Source: Bacteroidales bacterium (GTDB taxonomy: Bacteria; Bacteroidota; Bacteroidia; Bacteroidales; Prolixibacteraceae). From it: a DNA stretch of 24,000 nt. Every line of letters begins with the position of its first letter. Positions within the stretch are counted from its first letter, which is position 1. The position numbers and the translations under genes are program-made. Of this stretch, positions 487 to 15,400 are shown in pieces. Where the stretch lies: positions 11,798 to 35,797 of the forward strand of contig JBKEAJ010000005.1 in assembly GCA_047972135.1 (NCBI GenBank), written 5' to 3'. A model generated the notes under the pieces. That model was not told the origin of the DNA. It saw only the letters and a list, made by a program, of their open reading frames with translations, and searched no databases.

Positions 487-741
487 TTCATCTATTTTCG
501 TAGTTAGTGTCTATGTACTAATTTGTATTGATGTGGTATGTAATGAGCTCTTAAAATTTCAAATTTAAAAATTAATGTATTATCTTCGTTTCGTTGATGT
601 ACACTTATTCAGGTAGATTTCAGAGTAATAATATGAAACTTCCATGCAGTAGGCTTTAAGCTATATGCAATAAGCCTAACTACACACAGGCGGATGATTG
701 TAACTAGCAAAAGCATAAAGCTTATAGCTAAATATAAACAC

Positions 742-1500
742 ATGAAAATAAAATATGCCGTCCGTAGTGATATCGGACAAGTCAGAGAAAATAATGAAGA
801 TAATAATATTTGCTTATCTTTTGATGCATATCCTCATATACTTTTGTTGGGTGCCATAGATGCTGTGGGAGGATATGAAGGGGGCGAGATAGCTGCCGAG
901 ATCTGTAAGCTCACAGTAGAGTCCTATTTTGAGGAACTGACAAATCTTGAAGACAAAGACATGGACTTGGAGCTTAAAAAAAGTATGTATAAGGCAAACA
1001 ATCGGATATATTCGGAGCGTAGTAATAATCCAGAATATTCTCAAATGAGCTGTGTTGCTACGGTCGTTTTGATGGATATACAAAAGGGGAGTCTTTGCTT
1101 TACTCATGTTGGTGACTCTCGTGGATACATATATAGGGACGATAAACTGGAAAAATTTACTACCGACCATTCGCTAGTTGGTTACTTGGAGGAGTCGGGT
1201 AGGATTTCAGAAGAAGATGCCATGAATCATCCGCGACGCAACGAAATATCAAAGCTGATGGGTGGAGAACTGTTAGGGTATGACAGCAAGTATATGCAGT
1301 GTGGAAGACATAGTTTTTATTCGGGCGATATAGTAGTGCTATGCAGCGATGGGCTTACTGATTTGGTAAATGCAGCTGGGATAGTTTCCATTCTGTCGGC
1401 AGATGCAACTTTAGAAGACAAGAAGGAACTGCTTATATATGCTGCCAATCATCTGGGGGGTAGGGACAATATTACCGTAGCTCTGGCAACAAGCATATAG
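742..1500 (+). CDS. PP2C-family Ser/Thr protein phosphatase (Stp/PrpC-like)
   Basis: MKIKYAVRSDIGQVRENNEDN, DAVGGYEGGEIAAE, HVGDSRGY, TTDHSLV, LCSDGLTDLV and GGRDNITVA match the PP2C metal-binding and signature blocks. The ORF track starts at 694, but the ATG at 742 gives the canonical N-terminus. Confidence 0.85.
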   Translation: MKIKYAVRSDIGQVRENNEDNNICLSFDAYPHILLLGAIDAVGGYEGGEIAAEICKLTVESYFEELTNLEDKDMDLELKKSMYKANNRIYSERSNNPEYSQMSCVATVVLMDIQKGSLCFTHVGDSRGYIYRDDKLEKFTTDHSLVGYLEESGRISEEDAMNHPRRNEISKLMGGELLGYDSKYMQCGRHSFYSGDIVVLCSDGLTDLVNAAGIVSILSADATLEDKKELLIYAANHLGGRDNITVALATSI

Positions 1501-1530: not shown

Positions 1531-4191
1531 ATGAAAGGAATAATTACATTTTTACTATTAAGCATAAGTTTTGGCATGTATGTCCAAACGGATTGCTACG
1601 ATGATGCTACAAAGTTTGCTGAGAAATATTACAATAAAGGCATGATAGCAGAAGCGAAAGCATATATTGAAGATAACGAAAAACCGTGTGCAGGAGAGCC
1701 TTCCGAGGTCTTTAAGTGCATAAAAGAAAAGGTCTATTCCTACAAAGAAGGAAGTCTTATAGATAGGGTTGACCGTATGCAAGAAATTGCCGACCCCGTA
1801 CCAAAAAACAATTTTAAGACTTACACTGAGACCGTAAACGGTGTAAGTTTTAAGATGGTAGCTGTAGATGGCGGCAGCTTTTATATGGGCAGCAATGATG
1901 GAGATGATGATGAAAAGCCCGTTCACCGTGTAAGTCTTAGCGATTATTATATTGGCGAGACAGAGGTAACGCAAGCCTTGTGGGAGACAGTAATGGGCGA
2001 CAATCCGAGCGGTATTAAAGGCAGTAATAATCCAGTAGAGTGGGTGAGTTGGAATGAATGCCGGGAGTTTGTAGATAGGTTGAACAGACTTACGGGTAAA
2101 AGTTATCGATTGCCCACCGAGGCAGAGTGGGAGTTTGCGGCGCGAGGCGGTACCAGTAGTTCTGGCTATAAGTATTCCGGCAGTGATAAAGTTAGTGGCG
2201 TAGCTTGGTACAGAGACAACGGTGGAAATAAGACTCACCCTGTAAAGGGCAAGCAGAGTAATGAATTAGGTTTGTACGACATGAGTGGTAATGTATCTGA
2301 GTGGTGTAGTGATTGGTACGCTTCTGATTACTATAGCAGCAGTTCTAGCAGCAATCCTAGGGGACCTAGTAGCGGTCCTAGCCGTGTGGTACGTGGCGGT
2401 GGCTGGAGCAACTACGCATGGTACTGTCAGGTGGCTGAGCGCGACAGCCTCAATCCGAGCTTTAGCAACTACCGACTTGGCTTGCGCCTCGCCTCCAGTT
2501 CAAATTATGAGGCATCTGTTCCTGCCAATAGTTCTACTGCTCAAAAAGAGGCAGAACGCAAGGTCGCTGCCGAGCGTGCCCAGCAAGCGGAAGCGAATCA
2601 TTTTAAAACCTACACGGAAACTGTAAACGGTGTAAGCTTTAAGATGATAGCTGTAGATAGTGGCAGCTTTAATATGGGAGACAATGAGTGGGGTTGGTCA
2701 AAGCCCATTCACCGTGTTAGCTTGAGCGATTATTATATATGCGAGACAGAGGTAACGCAAGCCTTGTGGGAGGCAGTAATGGGCGATAATCCTAGTTGTT
2801 TTAAAGGCAGCACTAATCCAGTAGAGCGGGTGAATTGGAACGACTGCCAAGAGTTTGTTATCAGGTTGAGTAATTTAACTGGCAGGAGCTACCGTTTGCC
2901 TACAGAGGCAGAGTGGGAGTTTGCGGCGCGAGGTGGCAACAGTAGTTATGGCTATAAGTTCTCGGGTAGCGATAGAGCTAGTGGCGTAGCTTGGTATGAA
3001 GACAACAGTGGAAGTAAGACCCACCCTGTAAAGGGCAAGCGGAGTAATGAATTAGGTTTGTACGACATGAGTGGTAATGTCTGGGAGTGGTGCAGCGACT
3101 GGTACGCTTTTGATTACTATAGCAACAGTTCTAGCAGCAACCCTAGGGGACCTAGTAGCCGCCCTACCCGTGTGGTACGTGGCGGTTGCTGGGGCGACTA
3201 CGCGTCGTACGGCCAGGTGGCTAATCGCTACGGCAGCAGTCAGAGCGACAGCATCAACAATGTAGGCTTTCGCCTTGCCTCCAGTTCAGCGATAAAAGGC
3301 TTTTTGGACAATGAAAAAGAACAGGAGAAAGATGCCACTGCATGGCAACAGGCAAAAGATGTAAACATCATAGCAGGCTACGAAAACTACCTAGGCAGCT
3401 ACCCTTCGGGCAAGCATAAAGCGGAAGCCGAAAGAGCATTGGCAAGTCTAAAGCAAGAGGCAGAAAAGATGATAGCCGCCCAAGCGGAAACGAACCGCTT
3501 TAAAACTTTTACAGAAACCGTAAACGGTGTTAGCTTTAAGATGGTAGCAGTGAAAGGAGGTAGTTTTGATATGGGCAGCAATGATGGATATGCTGAAAAT
3601 CCCGTACACCGAGTAAGTCTTAGCGATTATTACATTGGCGAGACCGAGGTAACACAAGAGTTGTGGGAGGCAGTAATGGGAGATAACCCTAGTAATCTTA
3701 GCGGTAGTAATAATCCTGTGGAACAGGTAAGTTGGGATGAATGCCAAGAGTTTGTACGGCAGTTGAGTAGCCAGACAGGTCGGACTTACCGCATGCCCAC
3801 CGAAGCAGAGTGGGAGTTTGCGGCACGTGGCGGTAATAATAGTTATGGCTATAAGTATTCGGGGAGTGATAATATAGGCGATGTTGCTTGGTATGGTAGC
3901 AACTGCGGAGGTAAAACTCACCCTGTAAAGGGCAAGCAGAGTAATGAATTAGGTTTGTACGACATGAGTGGCAATGTATCGGAATGGTGTAGTGATTGGT
4001 ATGATAGCGACTATTACAACAGTAGCCCTAGTAGTAATCCTAAGGGACCTAGCATTGGCTCTAGCCGTGTGGTACGTGGCGGTAGCAAGAGCGGCTCCGC
4101 AGCGTACTGTCAGGTGGCTGAGCGCCACTACTTCTTTCTGAGCCATGGCGACTACGACCTTGGCTTGCGCCTCGCTTCCGGTTCAAAGTAG
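1531..4191 (+). CDS. Secreted protein with three tandem FGE-sulfatase (SUMF1/DUF323, C-type-lectin-fold) domains
   Basis: N-terminal signal-like segment MKGIITFLLLSISFGMYV. Three copies of ...FKMVAVxGGSFxMGS...HRVSLSDYYIGETEVTQALWE...RLPTEAEWEFAARGG...THPVKGKQSNELGLYDMSGNVSEWCSDWY...RVVRGG...LGLRLA. Starts 30 nt after the PP2C stop. Confidence 0.9.
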   Translation: MKGIITFLLLSISFGMYVQTDCYDDATKFAEKYYNKGMIAEAKAYIEDNEKPCAGEPSEVFKCIKEKVYSYKEGSLIDRVDRMQEIADPVPKNNFKTYTETVNGVSFKMVAVDGGSFYMGSNDGDDDEKPVHRVSLSDYYIGETEVTQALWETVMGDNPSGIKGSNNPVEWVSWNECREFVDRLNRLTGKSYRLPTEAEWEFAARGGTSSSGYKYSGSDKVSGVAWYRDNGGNKTHPVKGKQSNELGLYDMSGNVSEWCSDWYASDYYSSSSSSNPRGPSSGPSRVVRGGGWSNYAWYCQVAERDSLNPSFSNYRLGLRLASSSNYEASVPANSSTAQKEAERKVAAERAQQAEANHFKTYTETVNGVSFKMIAVDSGSFNMGDNEWGWSKPIHRVSLSDYYICETEVTQALWEAVMGDNPSCFKGSTNPVERVNWNDCQEFVIRLSNLTGRSYRLPTEAEWEFAARGGNSSYGYKFSGSDRASGVAWYEDNSGSKTHPVKGKRSNELGLYDMSGNVWEWCSDWYAFDYYSNSSSSNPRGPSSRPTRVVRGGCWGDYASYGQVANRYGSSQSDSINNVGFRLASSSAIKGFLDNEKEQEKDATAWQQAKDVNIIAGYENYLGSYPSGKHKAEAERALASLKQEAEKMIAAQAETNRFKTFTETVNGVSFKMVAVKGGSFDMGSNDGYAENPVHRVSLSDYYIGETEVTQELWEAVMGDNPSNLSGSNNPVEQVSWDECQEFVRQLSSQTGRTYRMPTEAEWEFAARGGNNSYGYKYSGSDNIGDVAWYGSNCGGKTHPVKGKQSNELGLYDMSGNVSEWCSDWYDSDYYNSSPSSNPKGPSIGSSRVVRGGSKSGSAAYCQVAERHYFFLSHGDYDLGLRLASGSK
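1810..2503 (+). repeat. Intragenic repeat unit 1 (FGE-sulfatase domain 1)
   Basis: Starts aattttaagacttacactgagaccgtaaacggtgtaag and ends cgcctcgcctccagttca. Aligns along its length with units 2 and 3. Confidence 0.9.
2599..3288 (+). repeat. Intragenic repeat unit 2 (FGE-sulfatase domain 2)
   Basis: Starts cattttaaaacctacacggaaactgtaaacggtgtaag and ends cgccttgcctccagttca. Offset from unit 1 is 789 nt. Confidence 0.9.
3496..4186 (+). repeat. Intragenic repeat unit 3 (FGE-sulfatase domain 3)
   Basis: Starts cgctttaaaacttttacagaaaccgtaaacggtgttag and ends cgcctcgcttccggttca. Offset from unit 2 is 897 nt because of a longer linker. A 56-nt block (3916-3971) is identical to 2233-2288. Confidence 0.9.
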
Positions 4192-4240: not shown

Positions 4241-4378
4241 TGTAGGGGCGTCCCTTGTGGACGCCCAATGCCACGGTGCAATATTTGCATCCCAAACAGC
4301 CGGGCAGGCACAAGGCACTGTCCCTACAAATTCTAGCAACAAAGAACAGATTGCCATGCTAGCGCTCGCAATGACGAC
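4241..4378. repeat. Cluster of GC-rich palindromic/interspersed repeat modules between the convergent FGE-domain gene and ahcY
   Basis: Hairpin gggcgtcc-cttgt-ggacgccc (4246-4266). tgtaggg (4241-4247) is inverted at ccctaca (4322-4328). 4336-4375 matches 14910-14949 at 36/40 positions, including a 20-nt exact run gcaacaaagaacagattgcc. Confidence 0.7.
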
Positions 4379-10501: not shown

Positions 10502-11595
10502 TATAAGTCTAATACTTGTTTCGTAAGTGTCTTACTATCAAAGCGTTTTATGTTTTCTTCGCCTTTGCGGATAAGCTCCTCGCGAAGTGTACTGTCGGAA
10601 TATAGTTTGTCTATGGCTTCGGTAAGGCTTTCTGGGTTGTGAGGATTGATGTAGATAGCTGCATCTCCTCCTGCTTCTTCAAAACATCCTCCTTCGGAGG
10701 TGATTATAGGAGCATTGTGGCATTGAGCCTCTACAATCGGTAGCCCGAAACCTTCGTGAAAGGATGGCAGTATGACCATCGAGCAGTTCTTGTACAAGCC
10801 TACGATGCTTTCGTTGTCGAGGTCATGAAGAATGTGTATACGCTCGCTTAGGTTCAGATTATCAGCTAATTCCATAATGGACTTCGTGTGTCCCGATTTT
10901 CTGCCTGCAATAAGCAAATGATGTTTTTCGTCCGTTTGTTTTATGGCTCTTAGTATAGCTTCGATATTCTTGTGCGGCTCGATAGCTCCAACATATAGTA
11001 AATAATTCTCAGGAAGTCCAAGTTCTCTTATCTTAGAACCATGGATGTTCATTTCTTCGGCATTGCGATGTATTGTTGTTACTGCCTGATAGATTACGGA
11101 TATTTTGTGAGCAGGAACTTTTAGCAAAGTTATCAAATCTTCTTTGGTCTGCTTGCTGACGGCTATGATATGGTCTGCATTTGTGCAGGCCTCGCTAATT
11201 TTTTTGTTGTTAAGGAATTTGTCGACAGCACCACTGCCTCCTTTTTCTTTCATAAACGCCAAATCATGAATGGTTACAATGCGTTTGCACTTGCTGTCCT
11301 TGATTATTGGCAACTCATTGGCTAGACCATGGAAAACCTCAATGCTCTCATTGTCAACGTGTTTGCAGATTTGTTTCTTCCAATAATTATCAAGCTTACT
11401 CAACATTCCTTCCGGCTCAATGATTTCCACGTCGCTGTAATTTGCGTAAAGTTCGTAGTCGTTTGTACTAGGAGTGAATAGTGTGTACTGATTATCAGGA
11501 TGCTGCATACGCATGGCATTTATTAGTGTTCTACTGTAGCTTCCTAATCCGCGAGAATTACAAAATGCACTGTGTGCGTAATATCCTATTTTCAT
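10492..11595 (-). CDS. Glycosyltransferase family 4 (GT-B, group 1)
   Basis: C-terminal GT1/GT4 motif ILPSFHEGFGLPIVEAQCHNAPIITSEGGCFEEAGGDAAIYINP. N-terminal GT4-type domain. Confidence 0.85.
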   Translation of the reverse strand: MKIGYYAHSAFCNSRGLGSYSRTLINAMRMQHPDNQYTLFTPSTNDYELYANYSDVEIIEPEGMLSKLDNYWKKQICKHVDNESIEVFHGLANELPIIKDSKCKRIVTIHDLAFMKEKGGSGAVDKFLNNKKISEACTNADHIIAVSKQTKEDLITLLKVPAHKISVIYQAVTTIHRNAEEMNIHGSKIRELGLPENYLLYVGAIEPHKNIEAILRAIKQTDEKHHLLIAGRKSGHTKSIMELADNLNLSERIHILHDLDNESIVGLYKNCSMVILPSFHEGFGLPIVEAQCHNAPIITSEGGCFEEAGGDAAIYINPHNPESLTEAIDKLYSDSTLREELIRKGEENIKRFDSKTLTKQVLDLYQS

Positions 11596-12762: not shown

Positions 12763-12832
12763 TGCCGAAACTATAGTATGAGGTAGCCGAAAATCATATA
12801 GAGTAGGCAATTTAAACAAAGTGAGTAATAGA

Positions 12833-13495
12833 ATGAAAAAGTTATTGAAATTATTGCCAATGTTCTTATTGGTAGGTATGTTGGCAACAAGTTGTTCAAG
12901 TGATGATGATGACAATGGAGGTATTGGTGCAGGTACTCTTAAAATTGGAAATCAAAGTCAGTCTTTGATTTCAGGTTCTCTTGTGTGCGAAGATACTCTG
13001 ACTATCAACAATGCTACGGTATACAAATTTGAGTTGGGTCTTGTTTCGGCAGGTGCAAAATGGTCTGAAACATCTAAAGAATTCATTCCTGATGGAACGC
13101 CTACAGAAGCAGCCGAAGTGTCTTTCTCTCTGTATTCTTCAAGTAATGACGGTCTAGTTGATGGAGCTTATAGTTGCGCAGATTATAAATCTGAGAATTA
13201 TTGCGCAGCCAAGACTTATTCTTCGAGTGATGCTAGTATTTATACTAATCTTAGTGATTACGAAAACGATGAGGATGGCGACTTATCTCCAACAAAAGGT
13301 GATGATGCATTTACTACAAATGAGTTGGGACTCACTGGAGAACTTACAGTAACGAAAGCTGGCGAAGCTTACACCTTTGCTTATTCAGGAAAAGCAACTG
13401 TAAAGTATAGAGAGGTTGCATCAGACTCTGTAAAATCTAAAGTAGTAGAAAATGTAACAATCTCTTATACAGGGTTGTTGAATGTTGTGAAGTAA
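12833..13495 (+). CDS. Hypothetical lipoprotein
   Basis: MKKLLKLLPMFLLVGMLATSCSSDDDDNGG is a lipoprotein signal plus an acidic, Bacteroidota surface-export-like stretch. No family recognised. The ORF track uses a GTG at 12821; the ATG at 12833 is more likely. Confidence 0.7.
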   Translation: MKKLLKLLPMFLLVGMLATSCSSDDDDNGGIGAGTLKIGNQSQSLISGSLVCEDTLTINNATVYKFELGLVSAGAKWSETSKEFIPDGTPTEAAEVSFSLYSSSNDGLVDGAYSCADYKSENYCAAKTYSSSDASIYTNLSDYENDEDGDLSPTKGDDAFTTNELGLTGELTVTKAGEAYTFAYSGKATVKYREVASDSVKSKVVENVTISYTGLLNVVK

Positions 13496-14592: not shown

Positions 14593-14781
14593 ATGGTCGG
14601 ATTTGTACTATTAGTGCTTCTTGCACTATTTGTGTTTGGAAATATAATAGCAGGTGTGGTTAGTCTGGTATTACATCTTACGAATAAGAACTATTTTTCT
14701 ACAAAACAATATTTTATGCTTGTTTTTGTATTAATGCTGATAGGAGGAATTATTATAGGAGGAATTTGCTCTGGCATGTAG
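14593..14781 (+). CDS. Small two-helix membrane peptide (62 aa), paralog A
   Basis: Two hydrophobic helices separated by LTNKNYFSTKQY. The C-terminal half (KQYFMLVFVLMLIGGIIIGGICSGM) is conserved with the unlisted ORF at 15224-15400. Confidence 0.55.
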   Translation: MVGFVLLVLLALFVFGNIIAGVVSLVLHLTNKNYFSTKQYFMLVFVLMLIGGIIIGGICSGM

Positions 14782-15223: not shown

Positions 15224-15400
15224 ATGGTGAGTTTTGCTATGATTGTAGTACTATTTATAGTCTCAAATATCATTACATTGATAGTCAGAGCTATTTATAA
15301 TAGTGAAAAGGATAAGTGGCTTTTGCCAAAGCAATATTGGCTGATTGTCCTCGCATTAATGCTATTGGGTGGAATTATTAGCGGTATGTGCTATAATTAG
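15224..15400 (+). CDS. Small two-helix membrane peptide (58 aa), paralog B; below the ORF-track length cutoff
   Basis: My translation: MVSFAMIVVLFIVSNIITLIVRAIYNSEKDKWLLPKQYWLIVLALMLLGGIISGMCYN, ending at a stop codon. It aligns with the 14593 peptide: MV.F at the N-terminus, NII, KQY, LML.GGII, and a conserved C-proximal Cys. Confidence 0.5.
   Translation: MVSFAMIVVLFIVSNIITLIVRAIYNSEKDKWLLPKQYWLIVLALMLLGGIISGMCYN

Follow-up and report, generated by a model that had tools for sequence, protein, structure and literature searches.

We analyzed a 24,000-nucleotide stretch of contig JBKEAJ010000005.1 (positions 11,798 to 35,797 of the forward strand; herein the window) from a Bacteroidales metagenome-assembled genome (MAG; GenBank assembly GCA_047972135.1). 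The window covers 24 kb of a source contig of 37.7 kb (37,708 bp) and has a GC content of 40.6%. One long open reading frame (ORF) at 1531 through 4191 on the plus strand, herein the target, encodes an 886-residue protein with three formylglycine-generating enzyme (FGE)-sulfatase domains, each of which ends in a hypervariable cassette. These cassettes were very probably written by a diversity-generating retroelement (DGR), as variable repeats (VRs) copied from a template repeat (TR) by a reverse transcriptase (RT).

The target protein is identical to NCBI MFV0344661.1 (Bacteroidales bacterium MAG). A Pfam scan returns PF03781 three times (E = 6.5e-134) and no other family. In a collection of 15 billion proteins the target forms a singleton cluster, and its next full-length relative is ~50% identical. 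Its parts are as follows.

1531 to 4191, plus strand: target ORF, with an N-terminal hydrophobic signal-like segment, an N-terminal region of ~95 residues, three FGE-sulfatase (C-type-lectin-fold) domains, and charged linkers between them
1813 to 2496, plus strand: FGE/C-type-lectin (CLec) domain 1, residues 95 through 322 (Pfam, codon alignment, and TvpA 2Y3C at E = 1.4e-47)
2602 to 3282, plus strand: FGE/CLec domain 2, residues 358 through 584 (Pfam, codon alignment)
3499 to 4179, plus strand: FGE/CLec domain 3, residues 657 through 883 (Pfam, codon alignment)
2378 to 2502, plus strand: VR1 tract, ~125 nt, with core at 2401 to 2478, constant 19-mer at 2382 to 2400, a constant 3' flank at 2479 to 2502 that resembles an initiation of mutagenic homing (IMH) site, and homogenized third positions
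3164 to 3288, plus strand: VR2 tract, the outlier copy, with core at 3187 to 3264 and 3' flank GGCTTTCGCCTTGCC with two mismatches
4061 to 4185, plus strand: VR3 tract, with core at 4084 to 4161, ending three codons before the stop, and third positions in common with VR1

The three 26-codon cores differ among the copies at 20 codons; the third base is fixed in 14 of these 20, and the fixed base is C in 10 of the 14. These counts reproduce those of a preliminary description of the sequence, which had also held that the pattern is the reverse of that in the rest of each domain. A codon alignment of the three domains bears this out: variable columns at codon positions 1/2/3 number 17/11/6 in the cores and 32/38/97 in the 195 framework codons, and codons varying only at positions 1 and 2 make up 14/20 in the cores vs. 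25/122 in the framework (Fisher p = 2e-5). Core codons end in C in 54% of cases, framework codons in 23%. The 19-nt stretch said to precede each core (CCGTGTGGTACGTGGCGGT) is found at 2382, 3168, and 4065 and nowhere else in the window (0 expected by chance). The motif said to follow each core (GGCTTGCGCCTCGCC) is exact in copy 1 only; copy 2 departs from it at two positions and copy 3 at one. Transitions and transversions stand at 33:44 in the VR cores and at 10:18, 12:11, and 15:19 in the pairwise tracts (framework pairs, 58:33, 69:45, and 87:56). Pairwise identity among the three VRs is 72 to 80%; the ORF is intact, with no stop codons inside the VRs.

The region of altered divergence is longer than the cores and has the length of a template. 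Judged from their sequences, the three domains are old duplicates, with framework third-position divergence of 27 to 44% between pairs. For copies 1 and 3, third positions diverge by only 5.1% in the tract (2/39 codons) vs. 36.7% in the framework (188 codons; binomial p = 5e-6). The same 39 codons differ at 21 first and second positions, with 14 nonsynonymous codons vs. 1 synonymous codon, and the variation is concentrated at positions 1 and 2 of NNC/NNT codons. With third positions alike and positions 1 and 2 scrambled, VR1 and VR3 were therefore probably both overwritten from one template after the domains diverged, and the 2/39 third-position differences place the last rewriting as recent relative to the ~37% divergence of the framework. 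The VR tracts are also GC-rich islands (59 to 61%, VR1 59%, vs. 46% in the framework). At the ends of the VR1 and VR3 tracts the 19-mer is identical and the 24-nt 3' flank near-identical, while the VR2 flank carries two changes; the 3' flanks may function as an IMH.

VR2 behaves differently. Between copies 1 and 2, third-position divergence is 20.5% in the tract vs. 26.6% in the framework (difference not significant), and VR2 departs from the other two at ~7 positions where VR1 and VR3 share a non-adenine base; it looks older, or derived from a different template. As an internal control for plain homogenization we used a 60-nt stretch of the same domains (THPVKGK[Q/R]SNELGLYDMSGN; 2233 to 2292, 3019 to 3078, and 3916 to 3975), which is near-identical in all copies at every codon position and indicates intragenic gene conversion or nucleotide-level constraint.

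The best sequence match of the target among solved structures is the DGR variable protein TvpA of Treponema denticola (Protein Data Bank 2Y3C, E = 1.4e-47), ahead of genuine FGEs (3e-28), and this match settles the predicted fold. Target and TvpA have the scaffold RGG.W.....YC.V.ER....P......LG.RLA in common, and the variable block aligns to the C-terminal RGG..GFRLA segment of TvpA (RGGSWAGSADYCAVGERVNISPGVRCSDLGFRLA). The VR thus lies at the C-terminal end of a C-type-lectin (FGE) domain, as the preliminary description had stated for DGR variable proteins such as TvpA. We also considered a true formylglycine-generating enzyme and rejected it: besides the weaker match, the Cys pair is not conserved. 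In alignment with the bacterial FGE 6MUJ, the first Cys of the pair falls on Asn and the second on a Cys inside the variable block, which is Gly in copy 2. Because the pair is replaced in this way, the target is predicted to be a binding scaffold and not an FGE enzyme; SUMF1/FGE has the same Pfam family and fold but differs in these two respects. Identity as a type IX secretion lipoprotein of the GldJ/GldK/PorK kind was likewise rejected, as PorK chains match only at E~1e-13 and over the C-terminal half.

A profile of the three domains recovers single-domain Bacteroidales proteins of 260 to 350 residues that are 60 to 67% identical and end in ...LG(L/F)RLAL; among 120 homologs from this profile, none has the QVAER scaffold. 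One of them (P0149; 284 residues, 63% identical to the window domains) is the target of a complete chromosomal Bacteroidales DGR at a locus herein called L111. Two other single-domain homologs have no RT within 6 kb. The L111 element is laid out as follows.

L111, 10001 to 10855: gene of the single-domain target P0149, with its VR at 10726 to 10859
L111, 11015 to 11515: HRDC accessory gene, overlapping the RT gene
L111, 11478 to 12479: RVT_1 (RT) gene
L111, 12480 to 12613: TR of 134 nt, downstream of the RT and matching the VR at 10726 to 10859

Across the repeat itself every TR/VR mismatch falls on a TR adenine; in a slightly wider counted stretch the figure is 17/19. The element has murF/alr, fucokinase, and Big_2 genes as neighbors and is therefore taken to be cellular, not phage. 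The window VRs have the same register as the L111 VR, with the same 26 codons between CGTGGCGGT and a GG-YT-CG flank, and their ~125-nt tracts are comparable in length to the L111 TR. Set against that TR, the window columns are variable at 20/29 adenine vs. 14/49 non-adenine positions (p = 8e-4). Invariant window columns are identical to it at 32/44 positions, so L111 is a different DGR, and its TR would be related to the missing template without being that template. A close homolog of the target is thus a demonstrable DGR target, differing in that it has one domain and one VR, with the machinery directly downstream.

What follows on the TR and RT, namely that they exist, where they lie, and whether they are active now, is inference. 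Each cassette would form the end, C-terminal and in contact with ligand, of a TvpA-like FGE/C-type-lectin domain, three of them in one secreted protein; the N-terminal hydrophobic segment fits a secreted or surface location. A TR of ~125 to 135 nt, outside the window, would be transcribed and copied by a DGR RT that misincorporates opposite template adenines, and the cDNA would replace a VR (mutagenic retrohoming). Template codons of the AAC/AAY type would then come to differ at positions 1 and 2 and keep C or T at position 3, and non-adenine positions of the tract would stay uniform. VR1 and VR3 would have been overwritten from one template long after domain divergence, with cDNA replacement guided by the 5' constant stretch that they have in common and by the 3' GGCTTGCGCCTCGCYTCCRGTTCA flank; at each event ~15 residues of the binding face of a single CLec domain would be randomized anew. 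The form expected of this template from VR1 and VR3 is ~125 nt long and reads CTAGCCGTGTGGTACGTGGCGGT AGC (AAG or TGG) AGC AAC TAC GCA AAG TAC TGT CAG GTG GCT GAG CGC AAC AAC ATC AAT CAG AGC AAT AGC AAC TAC AAA CTT GGCTTGCGCCTCGCYTCCRGTTCA; a genomic copy would match CTAGCCGTGTGGTACGTGGCGGT...GGCTTGCGCCTCGCYTCC. VR2 would have been written earlier or from another template and have drifted since. The Bordetella phage DGR requires an intact IMH for homing; for this reason we suggest that the altered 3' flank of VR2 may have disabled homing and that this copy is probably out of the cycle. As for the machinery, a cellular HRDC-type DGR like that of Treponema and TvpA is most likely; it would act in trans, encoded either on the 13.7 kb of the contig outside the window or at another place in the genome. 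While we regard the writing of the cassettes by a DGR as very probable, we lean only slightly toward a matching DGR still being resident in the source genome; the account as a whole, with the DGR resident or only recently lost, is on balance probable.

Several results weigh against this account. Pfam scans reveal no RT among the 20 window ORFs, and pattern searches and blastn (word size 7) reveal no fourth cassette copy or TR in the window, in agreement with the preliminary description; the genes flanking the target are all housekeeping. Searches for a TR or co-target in GTDB representatives, JGI metagenomes, IMG/VR, and INPHARED returned none. The source MAG is absent from these collections and from the indexed assemblies, so that such searches are blind to the source genome and are not counted as negative. 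Within this scope, the 5' 19-mer, exact or degenerate, has 62 loci in GTDB representative genomes, all chance or unrelated FGE genes; the 19-mer and a 51-nt degenerate VR pattern give nothing relevant in IMG/VR; the invariant core TNCTGTCNGGTGGCTGNGCGC has 0 matches in IMG/VR and 41 chance matches in JGI metagenomes; blastn of the VR against INPHARED phages gives no match; and a 50-residue profile of the three VRs, used for the co-target search, yields 3 candidates only. Exact look-ups of the target, PP2C phosphatase, and S-adenosylhomocysteine (AdoHcy) hydrolase proteins find no sister-strain contig on record. Related multi-domain proteins are largely static across strains, so that activity cannot be assumed here.

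The template itself poses a further difficulty. The preliminary description attributed the pattern to adenine-directed mutagenesis; the NNC signature, the match to the L111 TR adenines, and the VR1/VR3 tract uphold this, but one template is not enough for all copies, as VR2 has ~7 differences that are not of the adenine type. A single template for the three would need AAA, AAG, and AGA codons, which are mutable to stops. VR3 does carry AAG (Lys), as described, where copies 1 and 2 have the scaffold Trp codon TGG; this would call for non-adenine changes or else for AAG in the template, TGG then having been selected in VR1 and VR2. Non-adenine errors are reported to be frequent in DGRs of this lineage (PMC5758913), and the homolog P0020 also reads RGGSK at the scaffold Trp point. 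Because the Treponema VRs, too, vary beyond TR adenines, the imperfect fit to a single template lies within the range of real remote targets.

The Treponema element is the nearest known system. It typifies the HRDC-type DGRs (architecture C; PMC5758913) and is the best-documented case of remote targets, with seven target genes (PMC5758913, PMC4891356), mostly lipoproteins, some of which lie hundreds of kilobases to >1 Mb from the TR by annotated coordinates (PMC4891356). The window target resembles TvpA in its FGE-type C-type-lectin fold and in the position of the VR at the extreme C terminus of the domain. In T. denticola several VRs distant from the RT draw on a single TR, and targets persist in strains without the DGR. 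The seven T. denticola VRs are ~77% identical to each other, with 38/56 variable columns at TR adenines (PMC4891356); the window VRs are 72 to 80% identical, and one third of the Treponema variable columns lie off the TR adenines. TvpA-type targets differ in having one VR per protein, whereas the window target, from a Bacteroidales MAG and with TR and RT not seen, fuses three VR-bearing domains, two of whose VRs are internal.

That layout had been called unusual, which proves overstated. Targets with three VRs include one CLec1 case among the 372 DGRs of Wu et al. 2018 (PMC5758913) and three in a 2024 BMC Genomics survey (PMC11661182). Like the window target, these have three VRs per gene, two of them internal and all apparently mutagenized; unlike it, they have their cognate TR and RT identified, the comparison being by published description. 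Non-adjacent targets were found for 45 of the 372 DGRs, 10 of them with targets >100 kb away (PMC5758913), and Roux et al. 2021 state explicitly that adjacency-based metagenomic DGR surveys are blind to remote targets (PMC8144416). As three-VR, remote, and orphan targets are already published (PMC5758913, PMC11661182, PMC4891356), the window target is a rare but documented layout in an uncommon architecture.

Nor is the lack of adjacent machinery unusual, as had been supposed: RT-less multi-domain homologs are common in Bacteroidales. Proteins with two to six FGE domains are abundant there, often with dockerin or PEGA modules and usually with no RT within 10 kb. Those of gut and rumen (P0004, P0022, and the P0087 and 774-residue families) resemble the target in that each domain ends in a VR-like segment; they are 40 to 54% identical to it, and many carry dockerin/PEGA modules absent from the target. 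The homogenized-tract signature of the window target recurs in the four-domain P0004 (L065, 10001 to 13051), where tract third positions diverge by 6 to 14% in five of six pairs and by 19% in the sixth (not significant), with framework values of 29 to 42%, and the VR tracts differ at 19 to 28 first and second positions. It has no RT within 10 kb, its gene is identical in two samples, and its TR is absent from its 23-kb locus and from IMG/VR. P0022 and a neighboring three-domain gene (L065, 5826 to 8144) have no homogenized-tract signature, and their VRs are codon-decayed. No excess variation is seen in the VR-like segments of the 774-residue family (32 sequences) or of seven other clusters. 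In the P0087/P0256 family (dockerin and three FGE domains; L115, 493 to 2904) the terminal VR varies at ~9/26 positions in 13 sequences (N/D/H, T/N, F/Y, K/N), while its two internal VR-like segments do not vary and no longer have the NNC codon pattern. The three contigs retrieved for this family (L115 through L117) begin ~400 to 500 nt upstream of the gene. The multi-domain FGE family evidently includes live remote targets as well as fossils; within that range the window gene falls among the recently written, given how little VR1 and VR3 have drifted apart at third positions.

Fossilization of the cassettes is the strongest alternative: an ancestral DGR would have written the VRs, its TR and RT would since have been lost, and the binding sites, now fixed, would undergo ordinary mutation. 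Orphan targets of this kind are documented, as T. denticola strains without the DGR core keep target genes (PMC4891356). The static VR-like segments of the seven multi-domain clusters and the 774-residue family, the identity of P0004 in two samples, and the stand-alone homologs in housekeeping contexts with no RT within 6 to 10 kb all agree with it, as do the framework-level third-position drift and changed 3' flank of VR2 and the loss of the scaffold Trp in VR3. The 2/39 third-position differences between VR1 and VR3 speak for recent rewriting, however; the ORF is intact and the VRs are free of stops, and DGRs are very common in gut Bacteroidales (10.1101/2024.11.15.621889). We consider fossilization possible but rather unlikely. 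It is much harder to do without a retroelement altogether, by supposing paralogous binding loops under strong diversifying selection with flanks and third positions kept alike by local gene conversion. The 60-nt stretch attests that conversion or nucleotide-level constraint is at work in the target gene, and the C-terminal loop is generally the ligand or active site in FGE-fold proteins. Yet conversion homogenizes all codon positions and cannot leave 21 differences at positions 1 and 2 beside 2 at the third; selection predicts neither the NNC bias (54% vs. 23% C) nor the match to the L111 TR adenines; and transitions do not dominate in the cassettes as they do in framework pairs. We therefore hold this explanation to be very improbable.

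A milder departure from the favored account, and in fact a special case of it, is a canonical DGR with TR and RT on the same contig just outside the window, in which only the three VRs would be unusual. Only 1.5 kb separate the left edge of the window from the start of the target ORF, and up to 13.7 kb of unseen sequence may lie upstream, so the machinery could be within ~15 kb on that side; non-adjacent targets at a few kilobases to 50 kb are common (PMC5758913). But L111, like most DGRs, has its accessory gene, RT, and TR immediately after the target, a place taken in the window by a convergent AdoHcy hydrolase gene and then 20 kb of housekeeping genes (Pth, L25, PrsA, EngB, ArgRS, Adk, Obg, and others); upstream are an OmpA-family gene and a PP2C phosphatase gene (Pfam). 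We judge this arrangement improbable.

The immediate surroundings of the target contain two further features.

694 to 1500, plus strand: PP2C-family phosphatase gene (Pfam), codirectional with the target ORF downstream and separated from it by 30 nt
4246 to 4266, no strand assigned: GC-rich hairpin with an 8-bp stem (GGGCGTCC/GGACGCCC) and a 5-nt loop, 61 nt past the VR3 tract and between convergent genes

The PP2C gene and the target ORF possibly have a shared transcript. Two relatives of the target, P0021 and P0024, are fusions with Ser/Thr kinase domains, and L067 has a kinase gene close to P0022; together with the PP2C neighbor, this hints at a link between variable lectin-like proteins and phospho-signaling. 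The hairpin was considered as a DGR cruciform and rejected as evidence either way, since a terminator is likelier and no such hairpin follows VR1, VR2, or the L111 VR. The 250-nt gap between the target and AdoHcy hydrolase genes holds two GC-rich hairpin-like motifs of similar design (TGTAGGG-stem-CTTGTG-stem) in opposite orientation, at 4246 to 4266 and ~4300 to 4330; Rfam gives only subthreshold matches in the intergenic region downstream of the target. Farther along the window, a DUF805b RNA motif (RF02914; 42.1 bits, gathering score 35.6) at 12777 to 12809 on the plus strand lies directly upstream of an ORF at 12821 to 13495 that has no Pfam match at E ≤ 0.001. Two paralogous small ORFs (14593 to 14781 and 15224 to 15400, plus strand; 62 and 58 residues), predicted to encode hydrophobic two-helix proteins, occupy a ~1-kb stretch without a longer ORF. 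Between them are two short minus-strand ORFs sharing the end ...LKRFNA, which suggests a small repeated element.

For annotation, the target should not be named a formylglycine-generating enzyme. The intragenic test used here, which sets third-position homogenization against hypervariation at positions 1 and 2 between repeat copies, detects DGR-written cassettes without a template; it could be applied to remote or orphan targets in fragmented metagenomes, where present DGR surveys find RT-adjacent targets only. That many Bacteroidales multi-FGE proteins may carry DGR-written cassettes missed by adjacency-based surveys (PMC8144416) is of moderate interest. More tentatively, and in our view with the chances against it, a cellular DGR elsewhere in the genome may now be rewriting two or three binding sites of one polypeptide in trans, which would make the target a combinatorial, multivalent surface receptor. 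On that view the multi-FGE proteins so abundant in Bacteroidales of gut and rumen would form a large class of multi-VR targets served remotely, part of them live and many of them fossil. Should a live DGR serve the target, each protein would present three independently hypervariable ligand-binding sites, with a far larger repertoire and multivalent binding.

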